A stretch of DNA of 64,000 nt from a virus, in IMG/VR virus record IMGVR_UViG_3300035698_014365, positions 1 through 64,000 of that record. One strand, written 5' to 3'. The notes beneath the pieces are model-generated. The model did not search any database. It saw nothing but the letters and a program-made list of their open reading frames with translations, and was not told the origin of the DNA. Position numbers and translations under genes: made by a program. Below, in pieces: positions 632-35,570 of the stretch (position 1 is its first letter; each line of letters opens with the position of its first letter).

Positions 632-744
632 GGGTGACGTTTAGGGTGGCGTGGACTGTCCAGTAGCCTGGAATGTGGCCGAAAGGCTAGGAGCAACATG
701 TATCGCGGCGTAGCGTCCGCGCAGAAAGCACCACCCTGTCACCT
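632..744 (+). ncRNA. Candidate multi-stem structured RNA in the intergenic gap
   Basis: GGTGAC(633-638)/GTCACC(738-743) and AGGGTGG(643-649)/CCACCCT(731-737) close the region; inner hairpins CCAG-tagc-CTGG, GCC-GAAA-GGC and CGCGG...CCGCG. Confidence 0.5.
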
Positions 745-771
745 AACCACCCCAACAGGAGAGAGTGACAC

Positions 772-1026
772 ATGAACAAGACTGAATGGATAACAGAGAG
801 AACCCGCATCATATCTGACATGCTGGACAACCCAGACGAGAACGGTATCTACCCCACCACCAAGTGCTACGAAGAGCTTGACGCGCTCTACGACGCCATA
901 GCCCCCACCGCTACGACTGAGGGGGAGACTTGCGACAACTGTGGACGCGGTGACTGTCGGTTTGCGCGCCCGAACGAGGGGACCTCTTGTCGCTACTACA
1001 CCCCAACAGGAGATGACAATGGCTGA
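772..1026 (+). CDS. Two-module cassette protein: N-module + PTATTEG + Cys-rich module
   Basis: Starts after repeat B (749), contains repeat A, ends in repeat B. Confidence 0.8.
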   Translation: MNKTEWITERTRIISDMLDNPDENGIYPTTKCYEELDALYDAIAPTATTEGETCDNCGRGDCRFARPNEGTSCRYYTPTGDDNG

Positions 1027-13049: not shown

Positions 13050-16000
13050 CTACTCCTTGAGCAAGTCATTGTCAGATACAGAGTATGCCTTTATCTTGCC
13101 AAGTTTCTTCAGCAGGAATTGTTGCCGTGCCATCTCGCCTACAAAACTCACGTGCTTCGCCAGTATCTTCTCCTGTACCTCCGGAGACTTGTTTTTCCAT
13201 GCGTCCTTTCCAGTGGCTCCCTGCTGTCTCTTGAGGGCACGCCGGAACTGTCGCGTCAGTAGCTCAGCCATGTACTTCTGCAGAGCCGCGCGCTCCTCAC
13301 CAGAGATGTTGAACTCAATGCGGTCCTTCGCCTTCGAGGCACCAATCTTTGCCAGCTCTTTGACATCCGCAGGGTCTACGCCCAGCTTGCTGATTGCATC
13401 CTTCTTGCTGAACGTGAGCTTTCTCGGTGCACGCCTCGGAATCTGACCCGTTCTGCGCTCAGCCTCGTATGGGGTGAGCACCATTTCTATCATCGGGTCC
13501 ACGTCGTACTTGGTTACGAACGCCGGGTTCAAGAACACATTGAACAGCGAGTTGCTGCCGCTCTTGAATATCTGCTTCTTGTCCAACCCCAGCGTGTTGT
13601 ACGCCTCGGGGAGCATCTTCTCAACAAACGGGAGCTTATTTATTACGTTATTCAGGGCGCGTTTGAATGTGTTGGGGTCGTGCTTCTCCCGGGCGGTGTT
13701 ATCCATAGCCTGGCGAACCTGATACACGAACGTCGGCACGAATGATGCCGGTGCCTGCTCAAACACCCGGGCAAGGGCGCGGGTGTACTGCTTCCCCTCG
13801 TCGCCTGGTACGCCACGACCGAACAGGGTCTGCAGCCCAGCCAGCGCAGGGGTCTCAGCAATGGACTGGGCGCCACCAGAGAACGCATCAACCGTGTTGT
13901 CGAATGCTGCCCCGTAGTCGCCACTCTCAAACGCACGCTCCTGTCGAGCCTGTGCAATATTCGCACCCAGCGACAGGGATATGGCAAGCGGCTGTGCCCA
14001 GTCGTAGGACACAAGCATGTCGTCTTTTCTCTTCTTCGCAGCCTCGGCATCGGTGAACCCAGAGAAAACCCATCGCTTGAGCCCGGACACGTTCACCCGA
14101 TATGGGCCGCCACCCGTCTGCTCGCGCTCGAAGGCCGTGACGTTGTAGTTCTCTGCATCCCCAGTGATTATTCCCATGTTGTACATGGCGTAACCCATGC
14201 CAGTGAGGCCACCACCACCAACGACCGCCCTTGTGAGCGACCGGACGAACTCGCGCTGATTAAACTCGTGTCCTGCAACCGCACGGCCGAGGTGGTACAT
14301 CGACTTCACCATGCCTGCCGGCGAGTACTCAAGCGCACGGGCCAGAAGGTTGGCCGGCGTCTTCGGATACTTCAGCACGAGGTCGCCAACACCGAAATCT
14401 TTCTTCGCATTCAGCAATTTCTTGAGTGCAACGGCTCCCTCGGAAAGAAAGTTGTCGTCTTGGAACGTGACATACTTGCCGTACTGGTGAGCCAATTCAA
14501 TGGCCGCATCCGGGGCGTTCTTCATAAAGTCCTGAACGTATGCCTTGCGGTCTGCCTTCGGAACCTTGTTGTTGATCGCTGCCAGCTCGGCTATCTCCCC
14601 AACCAACTGGTTCTTTACCGTCTCGTACACGGCGCGGTCAGTGGCACCAAGCGACACACCAAGGGCCTTCTCGAGGAAGCCGAGTGTCTTCTCAGCATAC
14701 TTGAACGGACCCTCTGCACCCTTGCCGCGGAACGCAGCTCCCTGTATCTGGAACTTGGTTGAAACGTCGCCAGTGGGGAGCCCTTTTATGGAGCGCCGGG
14801 CGCCCTTCATAAACCCCTTGTACATCTCCTCAAAGGCGTGCGTGCCACCCTTGCCGAGCGTCACTGAGCGTTCTCCGGTCACCCTGGAAACACCAATGTC
14901 TATGGCTGTCGCCGGAAGGTCTATAACTCGCTCTGCCGCCTGCATGAGTGAGTTGCCAATAACATTCCTGCCAAGCGTCTTTACGTTTAGGAGCTGTGCT
15001 ATTGTCTGGAGCGCGCTGACCCTGCGCCAGAACTTCGGGGGTTTCAGCAACTCAAGCGTCTGTTGCACCTCAAGGATGGCCTCGGTACGCGCGTCGCCGG
15101 TCAGTTCCTCAATTGATGCAGTGCGCTCCTTCAGGTGCTCAAACATTTCCTGCGGCACGCTCTCGTCAGACTCAATGCGCTTCACCAGACGGTCAACAGC
15201 AGTTGCCTGCTCCCACAGGGCCTGCGTACGGGCACGCTCAGTCTTCAGAACCTTGCGAGCACGACGGTATATCTTCTGGAGGTGAGGCTGAACACGCTCA
15301 TCCAGGTCACCCATCATGGACTTCGACCACTCGCCAAACTTCAGCCCGGTCTCGCCAAGTTTCGCAGCACCGATAATCGCCAGGTCTGCCATCTCGTCAC
15401 CCGGGAGCCCTGCGCGGGTCTTCGCCTGCGTCAGAGACTTCTTGTACTTGTCCATGCGCTCGGCAGCCATGGTGTTGAGGCGGCCCTGCAGCATCTTATT
15501 GAGGCTCGGCTTCTTTGCCTTACCCTTCAGAGGAACAGGCTCACTGCCAACCGCGTCGTGAATCTTTGTCTGCATCAGCTTCAGCGACTCAACGTCCGAA
15601 GACGTGAGCTCTCCGCTGCTGACCACGCGCTCGAGGACACCGAGAACCTGTTTGGTTTCCTTGTCCAACGTGTCCCATGTCTGAGCAATCTTAGCGAGCC
15701 TCTGCAGCTCCTTTGCGTCCTTGGTCTGCAGCACGAGCTTGCGCTTGTCGGGGCGAGTCTTATTTATCTGATCGAGGCGTCTCTGCCCAGCGACAAGCAC
15801 GCCGGCGGGGTCTTTGAGAAGGCGCCCAAACACTCTGGCGGCCTGAATCTCCTGGCCAGCCTTGGTGAGGGCAACCGACGTTTCGGTAGCAATTTCAATA
15901 GCCTTCGACATCGCCGCATCGGCGCGCGCAGGATTGCCTGTGCCAGCCTTATTTGACACGGACTGATAGTGGTCAATAAGTCGCATGGCCACAACGGTCT

Positions 16001-19000
16001 TCTCAGAGCCGCTGGACTCGTCGGACTTCACCCACTGCTCAGCACCTTCCCACCCGCGCTCCCTAATGACCGCGTCGGCGTTCTTAATGCTCTCAACATT
16101 TGACTTGGGGGTATACAGACGCGAAGTTCCGCCAGGGCGACCCTTTTTCTCGGCCGTCTTGGGGAAACTGCGTTCTTTCTGCTTTGGCTGCTGCTTGGGC
16201 TTGGCCCCTGCCTTGGGTGGCGGGGGCTTCTTGGGCGGTTCAGCCTTGGGCGTTACTGGCTCTGGGGTTGGGGCTGGCTTCGGCGCTTCTGGCGTTCCGC
16301 CAGGCGCTTGTCCATCATCTCCAGATACTCCTCGTGTGTCAGCTTGTCCCAGCCGGCCCGCTTGTTCGCCATCTCCGTGGACATAATCTGAGTTCTCCTT
16401 CCATCGGCCCGCACGTGTCTCGTCTTCAATATATCGACGATTCCCGCCTGCGTCAATGTCTCTATTTGATACATCCCTCAAATACTGCTGTTTTGCGTCC
16501 TCTGCGTCAGCGCCTGCACTACCAGATGTGGCCATTGGGTCGCGCCCGACCACATGATCTGCTGCCCCAACGTCCATTCCAACGCCTGTGGGCATGCCAC
16601 CGTTCTTTGGGTGAGAAAGTTCGTGCAGGCCAAGTCCTCGGATATACCCATCGTACTCTGAGGACGCCCTCTCTGCTGCCGCACGTGATTCGTCGGCAAC
16701 ACGGGCAGCATCAGCACCATTGAGCTCGTCACCACCAGTGCGGTCAATCTTGGACTCCGGCGTGTCGAGCTCCTGCTTCAGGAAGTCGCCCCCTTTTCGC
16801 ATGGCAATATTGGCAGCATCGTGCCCCTTCAGCGGGTTGCCATCGGCATCCAAGTACTCAGGGTGCTTGCTTGCCCATTCTTTGCTGTAGTACTCACCGT
16901 TGGCGTCTGGTAGCTTGCCCTCAAAAAAGTCGTTGAGGCCACCGAGGTTGCGGAAGTCCACCGAGACTATCGAAAAGGGCTTCTTCAGGCTTGCGAGTCT
17001 GTATATCGAATTGACATAGATAGGCCGCGTCGGCATATCCATGACCTCGTCGTGCGAAAGGTCGGCCAGCGCCTCGGTGTTTTTGCGAATCTTGTCGGAA
17101 ACGCCGGGCTGCTGGGCTTCACGCACGAACGCAAGCGTCGGGTCAAGAATTTCCGCGGTGTTTTCTGGCTCGGTTGTGCCCTCAAACTTCTTCAGGACGC
17201 GCGCGCCTATCTTGTCGGCCGCATCTACCTCGGGGCTCTTTGAAGTGCTTTCTGTGAGATTCTTTGTGGCATTTTCCGTGACCTTTGCCAGTTCCTGCGG
17301 TGTCGCTGGGGCCTTGAACTCCGGTTCGGGCTTTGTGTCCCCCGGCTTGGCGATATCCAATGTTGGCTGCTTCGGCCCCGCCCCGGGCTTTGGCTGCTCA
17401 AACTGTGCTCCGGGTTGCATCTTCGGCAGGGCGTCCCCGGCGAGCTTGTCTGCGACTGGCTCGAACAGCTCGTCTCTGCGGGCACCAAACTCGTCAACCT
17501 TCGCATCGGAAACGACTGCAAACCCCTCTTTGCCCTTGCCCTTGATCCATCCCTTTATCTCGGCGCGCTGCGCGCCCTGCAGAACCTTGAATTTGGCACC
17601 AGACGCCACGTCGCGGATGGAAAACCCCTCTGCAATGGCGAGGTTCAGGAGCTCTTGCTTCATCCACTCCGCCGAGACAACATTTTCCCCGACAGCGCTC
17701 CCAACCCAAGCGTCATATGCGAGGTCGGCCAGCGGCTGTGCGAGAAGCTGCAGGGCGCCCGCGGGAGCATACACCTCTGGAATCACTGACACGAAGCCGG
17801 CGCCAGCACCACGGGCGGCCGCAAAGAGGGCGTCGCCTAGTGCCACCTTGCCCTCTGTCAGGTCGTCGATAGTGCGTGCGCCAGACAGGCCACCCGCAAC
17901 AATGGTTCTGGTCAGTGCAGATGTGAGAAATTTCGACTTAGCAATCCACGGAACGGTTTGGAGTCCCTTGCCCACAAGCCCCGCCATCCCAATGGACTGC
18001 AAAACTGTGCCAGAAATCTGTCCACCGACAAACAACTCGGGGTTTTCCTTGCGTGCCTGATCCACCATACGGTCTACGGCGCGGACATTCGTTGCAACCG
18101 AACGGCCAGCCTTACCAACTGCCCCGGGAACCTTGCCAACGGTTCCTTCGGCAAGGGATGCGATGCCCTTTCGGAGCAGACGGCTGCCCGGGACAGATTC
18201 ACTAATTCCGGCAACGGTCGATACGAACGGGTTGACCCTCTCCTCAATTGCAACGTCTTCGATTAGCTGCTGGTTCACAGTCCGCTGTACATTGTCCCCC
18301 GAGCGGTCAAGGACCAATCTTTGCTGGTTCTCAGGCAGAGAGGCCAGCCAGCCCGCTGTGCCAACTTCACCGTCACCCTCAAGCCCTTGTGACTTCGCCA
18401 GATTGCGTAGCTCGCGCGCGCTGACACCGACCAGCGGTTTACGCGAAGCCTCATTGCGACTGTTCGCAACAACAGTTTCTTCGCGCTCGGGAAGGGCGGG
18501 CGCCACAGGATCGTCAGACGCCGCAACAAAGTCCTCGCCAGCGTAGAGGTGCCCGGGGGGCGCCTCCTCCTGCCCCACGCGCAACTGGCGCTCCTCCTCT
18601 GTCTCTGCTGGAGGGGTTGTTGGCTCAATGTCAACACGAGTGGCGTCAGGAACAGCAGCCTCAGTAAGGGTGCGCTCGGGGCCCGGGGGAGCCATGGGGC
18701 CTTCGCCAAGAACCTCTCCTAGAATTCCGGTGCGGTCCGGTCCAGCAGGTTCAGGTGCAGGCGCTGGAGCAGGGGCACTCGGGGCTGCCGCGCCCGGCTC
18801 AACGAATATCTCTGACAGGTTCTGGGAGATGGCCTGTGACTCCCACCCGCCGTAGGCATCGAGACCACCAAGGGCAGACGACAGACCCGCAATACGCCCC
18901 TCGTCCCCAGAGGACAACACCTCTGTGACGTTGGAGCGGATGTCGTCCGGAGACCACCCTGAGTATGCAGGGAGTGCGGACGCCGCGCCAAGAAAACTAT

Positions 19001-19025
19001 CCTGACGTGCGATATCGAGAGGCAC
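13050..19025 (-). CDS. Giant internal virion/ejection (polyvalent) protein with a GGDEF-like domain
   Basis: 1991 aa, helical, last in the ejection-protein block; C-terminus of the large-polyvalent-protein type; DFRNLGGLND...GHDAAN...RTGGDEL. Confidence 0.8.
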   Translation of the reverse strand: MPLDIARQDSFLGAASALPAYSGWSPDDIRSNVTEVLSSGDEGRIAGLSSALGGLDAYGGWESQAISQNLSEIFVEPGAAAPSAPAPAPAPEPAGPDRTGILGEVLGEGPMAPPGPERTLTEAAVPDATRVDIEPTTPPAETEEERQLRVGQEEAPPGHLYAGEDFVAASDDPVAPALPEREETVVANSRNEASRKPLVGVSARELRNLAKSQGLEGDGEVGTAGWLASLPENQQRLVLDRSGDNVQRTVNQQLIEDVAIEERVNPFVSTVAGISESVPGSRLLRKGIASLAEGTVGKVPGAVGKAGRSVATNVRAVDRMVDQARKENPELFVGGQISGTVLQSIGMAGLVGKGLQTVPWIAKSKFLTSALTRTIVAGGLSGARTIDDLTEGKVALGDALFAAARGAGAGFVSVIPEVYAPAGALQLLAQPLADLAYDAWVGSAVGENVVSAEWMKQELLNLAIAEGFSIRDVASGAKFKVLQGAQRAEIKGWIKGKGKEGFAVVSDAKVDEFGARRDELFEPVADKLAGDALPKMQPGAQFEQPKPGAGPKQPTLDIAKPGDTKPEPEFKAPATPQELAKVTENATKNLTESTSKSPEVDAADKIGARVLKKFEGTTEPENTAEILDPTLAFVREAQQPGVSDKIRKNTEALADLSHDEVMDMPTRPIYVNSIYRLASLKKPFSIVSVDFRNLGGLNDFFEGKLPDANGEYYSKEWASKHPEYLDADGNPLKGHDAANIAMRKGGDFLKQELDTPESKIDRTGGDELNGADAARVADESRAAAERASSEYDGYIRGLGLHELSHPKNGGMPTGVGMDVGAADHVVGRDPMATSGSAGADAEDAKQQYLRDVSNRDIDAGGNRRYIEDETRAGRWKENSDYVHGDGEQAGRLGQADTRGVSGDDGQAPGGTPEAPKPAPTPEPVTPKAEPPKKPPPPKAGAKPKQQPKQKERSFPKTAEKKGRPGGTSRLYTPKSNVESIKNADAVIRERGWEGAEQWVKSDESSGSEKTVVAMRLIDHYQSVSNKAGTGNPARADAAMSKAIEIATETSVALTKAGQEIQAARVFGRLLKDPAGVLVAGQRRLDQINKTRPDKRKLVLQTKDAKELQRLAKIAQTWDTLDKETKQVLGVLERVVSSGELTSSDVESLKLMQTKIHDAVGSEPVPLKGKAKKPSLNKMLQGRLNTMAAERMDKYKKSLTQAKTRAGLPGDEMADLAIIGAAKLGETGLKFGEWSKSMMGDLDERVQPHLQKIYRRARKVLKTERARTQALWEQATAVDRLVKRIESDESVPQEMFEHLKERTASIEELTGDARTEAILEVQQTLELLKPPKFWRRVSALQTIAQLLNVKTLGRNVIGNSLMQAAERVIDLPATAIDIGVSRVTGERSVTLGKGGTHAFEEMYKGFMKGARRSIKGLPTGDVSTKFQIQGAAFRGKGAEGPFKYAEKTLGFLEKALGVSLGATDRAVYETVKNQLVGEIAELAAINNKVPKADRKAYVQDFMKNAPDAAIELAHQYGKYVTFQDDNFLSEGAVALKKLLNAKKDFGVGDLVLKYPKTPANLLARALEYSPAGMVKSMYHLGRAVAGHEFNQREFVRSLTRAVVGGGGLTGMGYAMYNMGIITGDAENYNVTAFEREQTGGGPYRVNVSGLKRWVFSGFTDAEAAKKRKDDMLVSYDWAQPLAISLSLGANIAQARQERAFESGDYGAAFDNTVDAFSGGAQSIAETPALAGLQTLFGRGVPGDEGKQYTRALARVFEQAPASFVPTFVYQVRQAMDNTAREKHDPNTFKRALNNVINKLPFVEKMLPEAYNTLGLDKKQIFKSGSNSLFNVFLNPAFVTKYDVDPMIEMVLTPYEAERRTGQIPRRAPRKLTFSKKDAISKLGVDPADVKELAKIGASKAKDRIEFNISGEERAALQKYMAELLTRQFRRALKRQQGATGKDAWKNKSPEVQEKILAKHVSFVGEMARQQFLLKKLGKIKAYSVSDNDLLKE

Positions 19026-33428: not shown

Positions 33429-35570
33429 TTATTCCGCACCCTCTTGCGGAATTTCCATATACTGCTCCTCTGGGGACGAGAAATCACCCCCGCCCTCGGG
33501 GGGAGCAACCTGTTCTGGCTGCGAGTTGGTAGGCTGACCCTGTGAAGGGCCACCAGGAGCTGCGCCTTGGGGGGCACCGCCTGGCTGCGCACCAGCTTGC
33601 TGAGCCATCTGCTTTAGCATCTGTAGGGCCTGTTTCTGCATCAGAATTGACTGTGCAGTCTGGGCCTTTGTACCTTCAATCTCAGAAATCGCCTGCAGCA
33701 TGTCGCGCATTTCCTTGAGCTTGCCAAGCATCTCGACCTTTTTCTTCTCCTGCGGATCAAGCTCTATGGTCTGGAGAATGCGGTTGGTCAGAATGCGAAT
33801 CTCTGCCTGGAACAGCTCTGGGTGCGCCGACAATATCTTGGTGATATCATAAAGCATGGCCTGCTCACCAATGCGCTGAGTTGGGCTGTCCTTGCGCAGG
33901 GTCACATACACGTTGGCCCGCGGCAAATCAGAGATACTGTTCTCGTAGAGCCGTTCTGTGCTCTCGCCGTCAACGCGGTACTGCGGACGGTTGAACTCGA
34001 TTTCCTCGTCAGTGTCGCCGTCGCGAATCTTGCGGTACTGGTCCTTATAGGTGATGCGCGCCTGATTGTACCACGCCTCGCCCTTGTTCATAAGATGCTG
34101 GCGCCAGTTGTCATACAGAACCAGGGTGCCGAGCTTCGTGACCGCATGCCGCATTTCGAATAGAACGCCGGACTCAGACTGTGGGCCCGTGCCCTCGAGC
34201 GCTGGCGTGACCGGGAGGACTTCGTTGAACAGGCTCAGGGTCTGCCCTATGTCCTGCATAATCGACGACGGAACCTCTTTGTTGGCAACCTGCCCCATCA
34301 CAAGGCGGGGGTCACCGTGCGCAGCGACCATGAATCCAGGCTTCGTAGCATTCTCGCTGATTTCACGGAACGTGGTCTGCGAGGTGTCGAGTGCATCGAC
34401 GTTGACGATCTTCATGTCAGACGCCAGCGACGCAATAATGTCGTCTTTCTTGGCTTCTCGGTAGTTCAGGGTGCGCACGAGGTCGATTGCGGCATCCATG
34501 ACGCCCTTATCGATACCCATCTCGCGGCATGCACTGAAGGGGAAGTAGCCGATAAACCCGCACTGAACGTCGTGGTCGCCCTCATACAGGAACGTCGTAC
34601 GCGAGATGTCGGGGCAGCACACGCCGAGCTTCAGCGTACGAGAGGTGTATGGAAATTCCTTGACGTTGCTGAAATCGGTGATTTTGTAGCGCTTCATGTA
34701 CTTCTGAACGTCGGCACGGCCCTCAATATCCAGCGGAAATTCAATCCAATCGCCATTTTCGTTCTTGCCGTACAGCCTGGTTGTCTTCTTTTCCTCTATC
34801 CAGCGGTACTCAATGACCAGATACTTGTCACCCCATCGGTTCGGGACGCGCTCAAACGTATCGACGTTATCAGAAAAGCCCACATCCTCCTGAGAATTGC
34901 TCTGGTCCCGAGCAATGCTGCGGAACGTGTCGTCGCGGATGTCCCACTTGTCGATCATTTCCTGTGGGGTGAACCATGCGTGCTTGATTGCGCGCTTCCA
35001 GTCCTTCAGGTCATCGGTAATCCAGTAGGGGTCTTTCAGTACCATGCCGCTCTGGGGCGACGTAAACGCAAGCGCACCCTGTGGGCGGAGGTCGTAGCGG
35101 ACCGTAAGCTCCTCGTACCCGCTGTGCAGGAGGCCGCGGAGGCAACATCGATTCTCACTGTTGTGGTAGTTGTATTGCTCAGCGTCTGCATGATACCAGT
35201 GCTTGAGCTTCTGGAGGGTCCAACTGTTTTCCTGATCGAGGGCCTGAAAGTCGAAGTCCCACTTTTCAGACAAGATTGAGCCTGCGAGGGTGTCTATTTT
35301 GCGGCTCGCTACATCGATGCTTACCGGGTGGCGACCGTCCTCTACGATTTTGCTGTACGATTCGCGGTCCCAGGAACTGCCGTCTACGGGCACGTAGGCC
35401 CGGATGTTGCGGAAAAGCCTGTCTCGTTGAGAGCGCGTCTTGGTGAGCCAGTCGTCGTTCTTGCGCTCTATGTCATTGATGAAGTCGTTACTCGAACTCT
35501 CCAGCTCCCGATAAGGGATGTTGGTGGAGATATTCGGAGCACGAATTTCCTTGGTATCAGCCATCCCCAT
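33429..35570 (-). CDS. Portal protein (P22-like)
   Basis: W...GRHPVSID..SRKIDTLAG, L.GxEEL, DP, QSESG motifs; Gln-rich C-terminal barrel. Confidence 0.9.
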   Translation of the reverse strand: MGMADTKEIRAPNISTNIPYRELESSSNDFINDIERKNDDWLTKTRSQRDRLFRNIRAYVPVDGSSWDRESYSKIVEDGRHPVSIDVASRKIDTLAGSILSEKWDFDFQALDQENSWTLQKLKHWYHADAEQYNYHNSENRCCLRGLLHSGYEELTVRYDLRPQGALAFTSPQSGMVLKDPYWITDDLKDWKRAIKHAWFTPQEMIDKWDIRDDTFRSIARDQSNSQEDVGFSDNVDTFERVPNRWGDKYLVIEYRWIEEKKTTRLYGKNENGDWIEFPLDIEGRADVQKYMKRYKITDFSNVKEFPYTSRTLKLGVCCPDISRTTFLYEGDHDVQCGFIGYFPFSACREMGIDKGVMDAAIDLVRTLNYREAKKDDIIASLASDMKIVNVDALDTSQTTFREISENATKPGFMVAAHGDPRLVMGQVANKEVPSSIMQDIGQTLSLFNEVLPVTPALEGTGPQSESGVLFEMRHAVTKLGTLVLYDNWRQHLMNKGEAWYNQARITYKDQYRKIRDGDTDEEIEFNRPQYRVDGESTERLYENSISDLPRANVYVTLRKDSPTQRIGEQAMLYDITKILSAHPELFQAEIRILTNRILQTIELDPQEKKKVEMLGKLKEMRDMLQAISEIEGTKAQTAQSILMQKQALQMLKQMAQQAGAQPGGAPQGAAPGGPSQGQPTNSQPEQVAPPEGGGDFSSPEEQYMEIPQEGAE

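Follow-up and report, generated by a model that had tools for sequence, protein, structure and literature searches.

Positions 1 to 64,000 of the virus record IMGVR_UViG_3300035698_014365 (hereafter the window; the record as a whole is complete, with 76,709 bp and direct terminal repeats) come from an uncultured short-tailed phage whose late genes include a minus-strand open reading frame (ORF) for a giant protein of 1,991 residues (P0001). The late block is read in a single orientation, from a P22-type portal gene through unassigned ORFs of structural size to the giant ORF and on to the tail fibre gene. A first-pass annotation of the same DNA, made from its letters and translations, had described P0001 as an ejection protein containing a GGDEF-like nucleotide cyclase domain with altered specificity residues, and had placed this domain at window positions 16480-17060. 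Every motif quoted in support of that description, including SIVSVDFRNLGG, is present in the giant ORF, and the span coincides with the core of the GGDEF fold mapped here (Table 1). The protein collection searched holds an identical 1,991-residue protein (P0003).

That residues 647-849 are a true homologue of the GGDEF fold can be regarded as practically certain. When the excised domain (P0002, residues 636-880) is compared with 1.84 billion representative proteins it retrieves 23 relatives, nine of which are giant proteins of 1,762-4,300 residues in which the module is 29-61% identical. The weaker relatives (library-wide expectation value, E, of 4e-6 to 9e-4) themselves pass the Pfam GGDEF model with E down to 1.2e-22, and the Pfam threshold is passed by eight of the 19 relatives that were aligned. 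Over 186 columns, hhalign aligns the giant-protein clade to the Pfam-positive clade with a probability of 100% (E 5.5e-43), and the one large gap corresponds exactly to a 34-residue insert that the second clade lacks; a profile of both clades together matches 45 chains in the PDB, all of them GGDEF proteins, with a best E of 1.3e-7. The AlphaFold2 model of the domain, built from a nine-sequence alignment, has a mean predicted local distance difference test score (pLDDT) of 93.1 and a predicted template modelling score of 0.86. Foldseek relates this model to 93 PDB chains at E<=1e-3, the matches listed being all GGDEF (best SiaD, E 5.4e-10), and VIA-align superposes it on WspR, PleD, DgcB, GcbC, DgcR and others with Z 16.7-13.5 and a root-mean-square deviation (rmsd) of 2.1-2.5 A over about 150 residues, the best match having Z 16.7 and rmsd 2.2 A over 155 aligned residues. 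The palm fold claimed from the motifs is thus borne out by model, structural superposition and profile alignment alike, and the motifs are conserved in homologues. Most of the GGDEF domains among the structural matches listed are diguanylate cyclases, and the degenerate GGDEF domains of LapD and FimX are also among the VIA-align matches. The top 50 VIA-align rows are all GGDEF domains and include no chain of mCpol or Cas10, palm domains to which a more distant relation may exist. The viral structure library BFVD is headed by GGDEF proteins that phages encode as separate genes (E 8.5e-8 to 5.7e-4). A PDB search with the single sequence gave nothing but a weak match to UMP synthase (E 0.007), rejected as chance because it spans no more than 72 residues about the GGDE hairpin (89-160 of P0002) and is overridden by the fold evidence.

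Table 1. Features of the giant ORF and of other genes named in the text, with positions in the 64,000-nucleotide window.
Feature	Residues of P0001	Window positions	Strand	Basis or remark
Giant ORF (P0001), 1,991 residues	1-1991	13050-19025	minus	GTG start; modules joined by Pro-rich linkers
Pro-rich linker before module	541-580	17286-17405	minus	composition
Whole conserved module	581-912	16290-17285	minus	core, N-terminal helical lead-in and C-terminal hairpin (VDxxGNxxYI)
GGDEF-fold core	647-849	16479-17087	minus	AlphaFold2, Foldseek, VIA-align (model residues 12-214)
SIVSVDFRNLGG	685-696		minus	quoted motif, found in ORF
D690 = PleD D327 (metal ligand)	690	16956-16958	minus	invariant save one degenerate copy
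G695 = PleD K332 position (transition-state Lys)	695	16941-16943	minus	changed; clade mostly Gly; motif N-L-G-G-L-N
N698 = PleD N335 (base contact)	698	16932-16934	minus	invariant
Insert FFEGK...NPLK, 34 residues	700-733	16827-16928	minus	between helices carrying N698 and N739
GHDAAN	734-739		minus	quoted motif, found in ORF
N739 = PleD D344 position (guanine-reading Asp); Ser348 in Hypr GacA	739	16809-16811	minus	Asn in 27 domains, Asp in 4
IDRTGGDEL	760-768		minus	quoted motif, found in ORF
R762-T-G-G-D-E-L768, Arg-x-GGDE hairpin	762-768	16722-16742	minus	R, G, G, D, E invariant or nearly so
L768 = PleD F372 (Phe of GGDEF)	768			variable in relatives
H805-P-K807 and P812-T-G814-x-G-x-D818-x-G820, clade-specific motifs	805-820	16566-16613	minus	nearly invariant
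GVGMDVG	814-820		minus	quoted motif, found in ORF
K845 = PleD K442 (phosphate-binding Lys)	845	16491-16493	minus	nearly invariant
Pro/Lys-rich linker after module	901-960	16146-16325	minus	composition
C-terminal module, 702 residues, all-helical	1290-1991	13053-15158	minus	AlphaFold2, pLDDT 81.6
Tail fibre, 1,537 residues		8155-12768	minus	gene following giant ORF in late block
ORF of 243 residues		6994-7713	minus	49% identical to an ORF of a relative's contig
ORF of 468 residues		19025-20431	minus	upstream of giant ORF
ORF of 771 residues		23599-25914	minus	PKD and concanavalin/LamG-type lectin domains
P22-type portal		33429-35570		co-oriented late block
Tad1 homologue, 123 residues		54988-55359	minus	see text

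Residue equivalences were read from printed hidden Markov model alignments to GGDEF crystal chains and from a table of some 30 related domains that are 25-61% identical, with the roles of PleD residues taken from the literature (PMC7288161, PMC12943098). The retention of the metal-binding aspartate and of the GGDE motif, as claimed from the sequence, is upheld by these alignments: D690 falls on the first Asp of the DxD of the crystal chains and corresponds to D327 of PleD, a metal ligand (PMC7288161), and the two-metal centre is conserved as D690, D766 and E767 together with N698, R762 and K845. That this centre has been kept over 25-61% identity argues against decay. The central hairpin residue is Asp throughout the clade and never Glu, one degenerate copy having Lys. 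K845 (K210 of the model) is equated with PleD K442 because model residue 214, the last one aligned to PleD, is PleD 446; no conserved Arg equivalent to R446 lies four residues after K845, R850 being one position off and not conserved. No RxxD feedback site (I-site) is present upstream of the GGDE hairpin. Besides the motifs of Table 1, N693 is a further nearly invariant residue of the clade's own. The two changes pointed out by the first-pass annotation, Lys to Gly and guanine-reading Asp to Asn, also hold in the crystal-chain alignments, where G695 occupies the position of PleD K332, a stabiliser of the transition state (PMC12943098), and N739 that of D344. As far as the aligned sequences go, both substitutions, to Asn and to Gly, characterise the clade in general and are not peculiar to one phage.

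In comparison with PleD (1W25, 2V0N) and WspR (3BRE, 3I5B), the phage domain has the same fold, with Z 15-16.7 at an rmsd of 2.1-2.5 A, and keeps the lead-in and metal Asp residues, the Asn that contacts the base, the Arg-x-GG(D/E)E hairpin and the phosphate Lys. It differs from them in being 13-22% identical, in the K332 to Gly and D344 to Asn changes, in a variable residue in place of the hairpin Phe, in having neither a conserved R446 nor an RxxD site, in the insert between helices A and B, in the absence of any receiver or sensor domain and in the added HPK and PTGxG motifs. The insert, put at about 35 residues in the first-pass annotation and measured here at 34, is confined to the giant-protein clade, in which F65, F66, G68, W82 and G94 (domain numbering) are invariant, and it is modelled at pLDDT 94-96. 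From the topology we infer that it replaces the short loop between the helices bearing N698 and N739 and should cover the base pocket.

An Asn amide could in principle pair with either purine. The earlier statement that Hypr GGDEF enzymes use ATP by virtue of a substitution at this position is correct: a Ser at the base-reading position lets GacA take adenine or guanine, and the natural Ser/Thr enzymes have GGDE only (PMC6456294). The use of GGDE and never GGEE in the Asn clade, one degenerate copy with Lys apart, is a suggestive parallel with these enzymes (GacA, PDB 5VS9; Bd0367), as is the base reader other than Asp. The members of the Asn clade are nevertheless not Hypr enzymes, because their base-reading residue is Asn and not Ser/Thr; the phage domain moreover has Leu and not Phe/Tyr as the last residue of the motif, and lacks a receiver domain. 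In OptS of the Panoptes system, a related palm cyclase of the mCpol type that makes cyclic dinucleotides without a sensor, an Asn faces adenine, at its N6 (PMC12657218), although OptS is a host defence protein from which the GGDEF motif is largely missing and which is not among the top 50 VIA-align matches. Phage-encoded GGDEF folds are known from gp350 of Bacillus phage G, the diguanylate cyclase of phage SP-15 and Bordetella phage CN1, but these proteins are small and separate, not modules of giants in the structural block, and show 13-16% identity.

The clade is rare, as the 23 matches that a single sequence finds among 1.84 billion representatives indicate; no relatives of the domain were found in IMG/VR or in a collection of one genome per prokaryote species, and the phage GenBank collection gave no match at the DNA or the protein level. 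Across the 19 aligned relatives, Pfam identifies SLT (in two of them), ART-PolyVal, LPD1, LPD5, LPD38, SNF2/helicase, RadC and methylase domains, a company that by its sequence signatures is the repertoire of polyvalent proteins. Residues 581-912 are the only part common to P0001 and a 1,944-residue relative (P0005), and the match to a 3,828-residue relative (P0006) on a 65.6-kb contig is limited to residues 528-915 of P0001; because it is shared alone with these two proteins, the module has the behaviour of a mobile cargo domain. Four relatives (P0014, P0015, P0019 and P0024) carry two GGDEF-like domains in tandem in one chain, as expected if the reaction needs two domains. The second copy in P0014 has lost the metal Asp and the Asp of GGDE. 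Other relatives stand alone as proteins of 236-250 residues that adjoin helicase and methylase genes on other metagenomic contigs.

An association of GGDEF domains with such proteins has been described before. Iyer et al. (2017; PMC5512222) list GGDEF among the domains of polyvalent proteins as 'not very widespread', with Acetonema longum WP_004096050.1 as an example, propose that it interferes with host nucleotide signalling and tie polyvalent-protein domains to injected phage proteins. The idea of an injected GGDEF domain, there proposed from sequences, is therefore not new. Like the proteins described there, P0001 is a giant phage protein of several modules, presumably injected, with GGDEF as one of them, and its relatives carry the same ART-PolyVal, SNF2, methylase, LPD1/5/38, RadC and SLT domains; the Asn and Gly changes, the 34-residue insert and the missing feedback site are not among the features described in the accessible part of the paper. 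We found no report in the literature that a phage GGDEF domain is active or is delivered by the virion. What sets the present case apart, on the sequence comparisons made, is that the domain belongs to a rare and well-defined clade in which the residues for base reading and for the transition state are changed, the feedback site is missing and an insert probably covers the pocket.

Apart from the GGDEF module, P0001 has a second conserved module at its C terminus, which recurs at 25-41% identity in some 30 hypothetical proteins 467-1,084 residues long; several of these are encoded on contigs of roughly 40-49 kb. The N-terminal part of one such relative is DarB-like and that of another ParB-like, which suggests, as far as sequence can, that the C-terminal 702 residues are a conserved carrier with exchangeable cargo. 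The module has no sequence or family match, PHROGs included, and its model has no fold match in the PDB (Foldseek best E 0.16; VIA-align best Z 7.4, to a helical hairpin only). A profile of the module matched designer repeat proteins only, from which no identity was gained. A BLAST comparison of P0001 with an LPD38-bearing relative aligned the GGDEF part alone; in a protein atlas P0001 falls in unnamed viral clusters only, with LPD38 as a weak lead.

In phage T7, the gene of the internal-core protein gp16 lies just before the tail fibre gene, and gp16 has an SLT domain. The internal core or ejection proteins of podoviruses, such as T7 gp16 and the virion RNA polymerase of N4, resemble P0001 in being very large and in being encoded before the fibre gene within a portal-to-fibre block; they differ in that no sequence or fold similarity between them and P0001 was found and in that P0001 lacks an SLT domain. 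We infer the label of ejection protein, by analogy, from this slot before the fibre gene and from the domain partners of the relatives, and on the same grounds we consider delivery of the giant protein by the virion somewhat more probable than its absence from the particle's cargo.

Our favoured explanation is that residues of about 581-912 form a self-contained cargo module, the core of which is a catalytically competent GGDEF-family cyclase, injected and with a loosened or shifted choice of base; taken as a whole we rate it evenly, with as much to be said for it as against it. Of its parts, catalytic activity is, from the conserved residues, somewhat more probable than not, and a product other than c-di-GMP is plausible but less probable than not. 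According to this explanation two copies of the domain would pair and condense two purine nucleoside triphosphates to a 3',3'-cyclic dinucleotide, the pairing taking place between separate copies of the giant protein, where some relatives have both domains in one chain. The enzyme would be unregulated, because it has neither an RxxD feedback site nor a sensor domain. The change of the base reader from Asp to Asn, the hairpin that is always GGDE and the insert over the base pocket would loosen or shift the choice of purine, so that the enzyme might make c-di-GMP or else a dinucleotide that is mixed or contains adenine. The giant protein would fill an internal-core slot like that of T7 gp16, be packed in the virion and enter the cell with the DNA, and because it enters with the DNA the signal would be made before any phage gene is expressed. 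Such an injected signal could reset the surface and motility programmes of the host or interfere with nucleotide-based defence.

Several observations weigh against this explanation. The Pfam GGDEF model (PF00990) finds no match, even at E 10, in the whole protein, the domain or a six-frame translation of the genome, NCBIfam and PHROGs likewise give no GGDEF match for the whole protein or the excised domain, and when a profile is built from the giant-protein clade only, its match to the PDB is marginal, DosC being the first GGDEF chain at E 0.099. Relative to PleD, K332 has become Gly, D344 has become Asn and the equivalent of R446 is without conservation; D344 is reported to be essential for activity in canonical enzymes (PMC7288161), and the loss of K332 and D344 could mean an inactive or a different enzyme. 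Four family members bear Asp at the base-reading position with motifs that are otherwise identical, which speaks against a change of specificity. The GGDEF module is the only part of P0001 that is recognisable, Pfam finding no SLT or LPD domain and no second enzymatic domain in the protein, and no family or fold evidence marks the remainder of P0001 as a virion or ejection protein. The phage genome, finally, encodes no PilZ and no EAL domain.

Some of these points fit an ordinary diguanylate cyclase, in which N739 reads guanine, c-di-GMP is the sole product and the substitutions are neutral clade history. The four Asp-bearing members suggest that the two residues may be interchangeable, the second guanine contact, N698, is invariant, and the structural neighbours listed are all GGDEF proteins and mostly c-di-GMP synthases. 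Yet Asn is held by the majority, 27 of 31 domains, across the full range of identity, in the place of a residue that canonical enzymes are reported to require (PMC7288161); the clade has GGDE hairpins and no GGEE, a restriction known from Hypr enzymes; and a conserved insert lies between the two base-reading helices. We consider this account unlikely on balance.

Similarly unlikely is an active domain that does not reach the cell with the virion, the protein being made late and acting in the infected cell, or serving in assembly only. The want of any known virion or ejection protein among the matches to P0001 outside its GGDEF module would agree with this, as would the stand-alone relatives, whose neighbours are helicase and methylase genes and not structural genes. 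Against it stand the location of the gene among structural genes, immediately ahead of the tail fibre gene, the SLT and polyvalent-protein domains of the relatives, which Iyer et al. (PMC5512222) tie to injected proteins, and the DarB-like and ParB-like N-terminal cargo borne by relatives of the C-terminal module.

A degenerate GGDEF domain without dinucleotide synthesis, be it a nucleotide-binding or sensing domain, a docking or structural module or an NTPase of the kind found in YybT, seems slightly less likely still. In its favour, the domain no longer has the Lys of the transition state, the Asp that reads guanine, an equivalent of R446 or the Phe of GGDEF, the Pfam model fails to detect it, LapD and FimX are among its structural matches, and GGDEF domains that have degenerated into sensors or ATPases are on record (PMC7288161; YybT). 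The known cases, however, have lost hairpin acids or the metal Asp, whereas D690, G764, G765, D766 and E767 are kept here in nearly every relative, the new invariant residues N693, H805 and K807 suggest an active site that is compensated and not decaying, and the relatives with tandem domains fit a two-site reaction.

The favoured explanation, of an injected cyclase with a loosened or shifted choice of base, also has a stronger form. As was noted from the sequence, the same genome encodes a Tad1 (Thoeris anti-defence 1) sponge: a 123-residue ORF has E 1.2e-29 to PDB 8kbb and 5e-17 to 7uav. It sits in the late block, between a 183-residue ORF and a glycan gene cluster. In the stronger form, the virion delivers an unregulated cyclase, able to use ATP by virtue of its Asn base reader and its insert, that floods the cell within seconds of DNA entry with an adenine-containing 3',3'-dinucleotide of the cGAMP (cyclic GMP-AMP) or c-di-AMP type, or with another product that is not c-di-GMP, and that together with the Tad1 sponge jams, pre-empts or refills the nucleotide immune signalling of the host. 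This we hold to be improbable; if true, a Panoptes-type, decoy-guarded system might, for example, be kept silent while the sponge removes defence signals.

Were the module found to be active as well as injected, it would give the first experimental example of a second-messenger synthase delivered by a phage particle, and the phage would write a signalling molecule of its host before expressing any gene of its own. The present case is of value for its particular variant and for the concrete form that it gives to the test. The clade offers a clean test object, a compact module set between linkers that lacks both sensor and feedback site, and its natural Asn/Asp polymorphism at the base-reading position allows one to ask what sets the product choice of GGDEF enzymes.

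The genes around the giant ORF present further features. The 468-residue ORF upstream is translationally coupled to it, the stop of the first overlapping the GTG start of the second; the product of the 468-residue ORF is of low complexity with a Gly run at its end, and family searches with it gave no match. PDB sequence searches with the neighbouring ORFs of 860 and 737 residues gave no match either. The 771-residue ORF combines a PKD domain with a lectin domain of the concanavalin/LamG type, and the tail fibre contains a weak pectinesterase-like stretch that may be a beta-helix depolymerase.

On the contig Ga0268262_10000092 (110,595 bp) the same 246-residue stand-alone member is found at both ends (L004, L005), so that the contig is probably circular with a terminal overlap, and an ORF near this member matches a PHROG tail protein. 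Upstream of another stand-alone member, a run of overlapping ORFs (L006:151-6167), a helicase and a DNA methyltransferase among them, looks like the domains of a polyvalent protein divided into separate genes. On the contig of P0006, a 20.7-kb stretch (L002) encodes at L002:2115-2846 a counterpart, 49% identical, of the 243-residue ORF of the phage, which is, besides the GGDEF module, the only protein common to the phage and L002.

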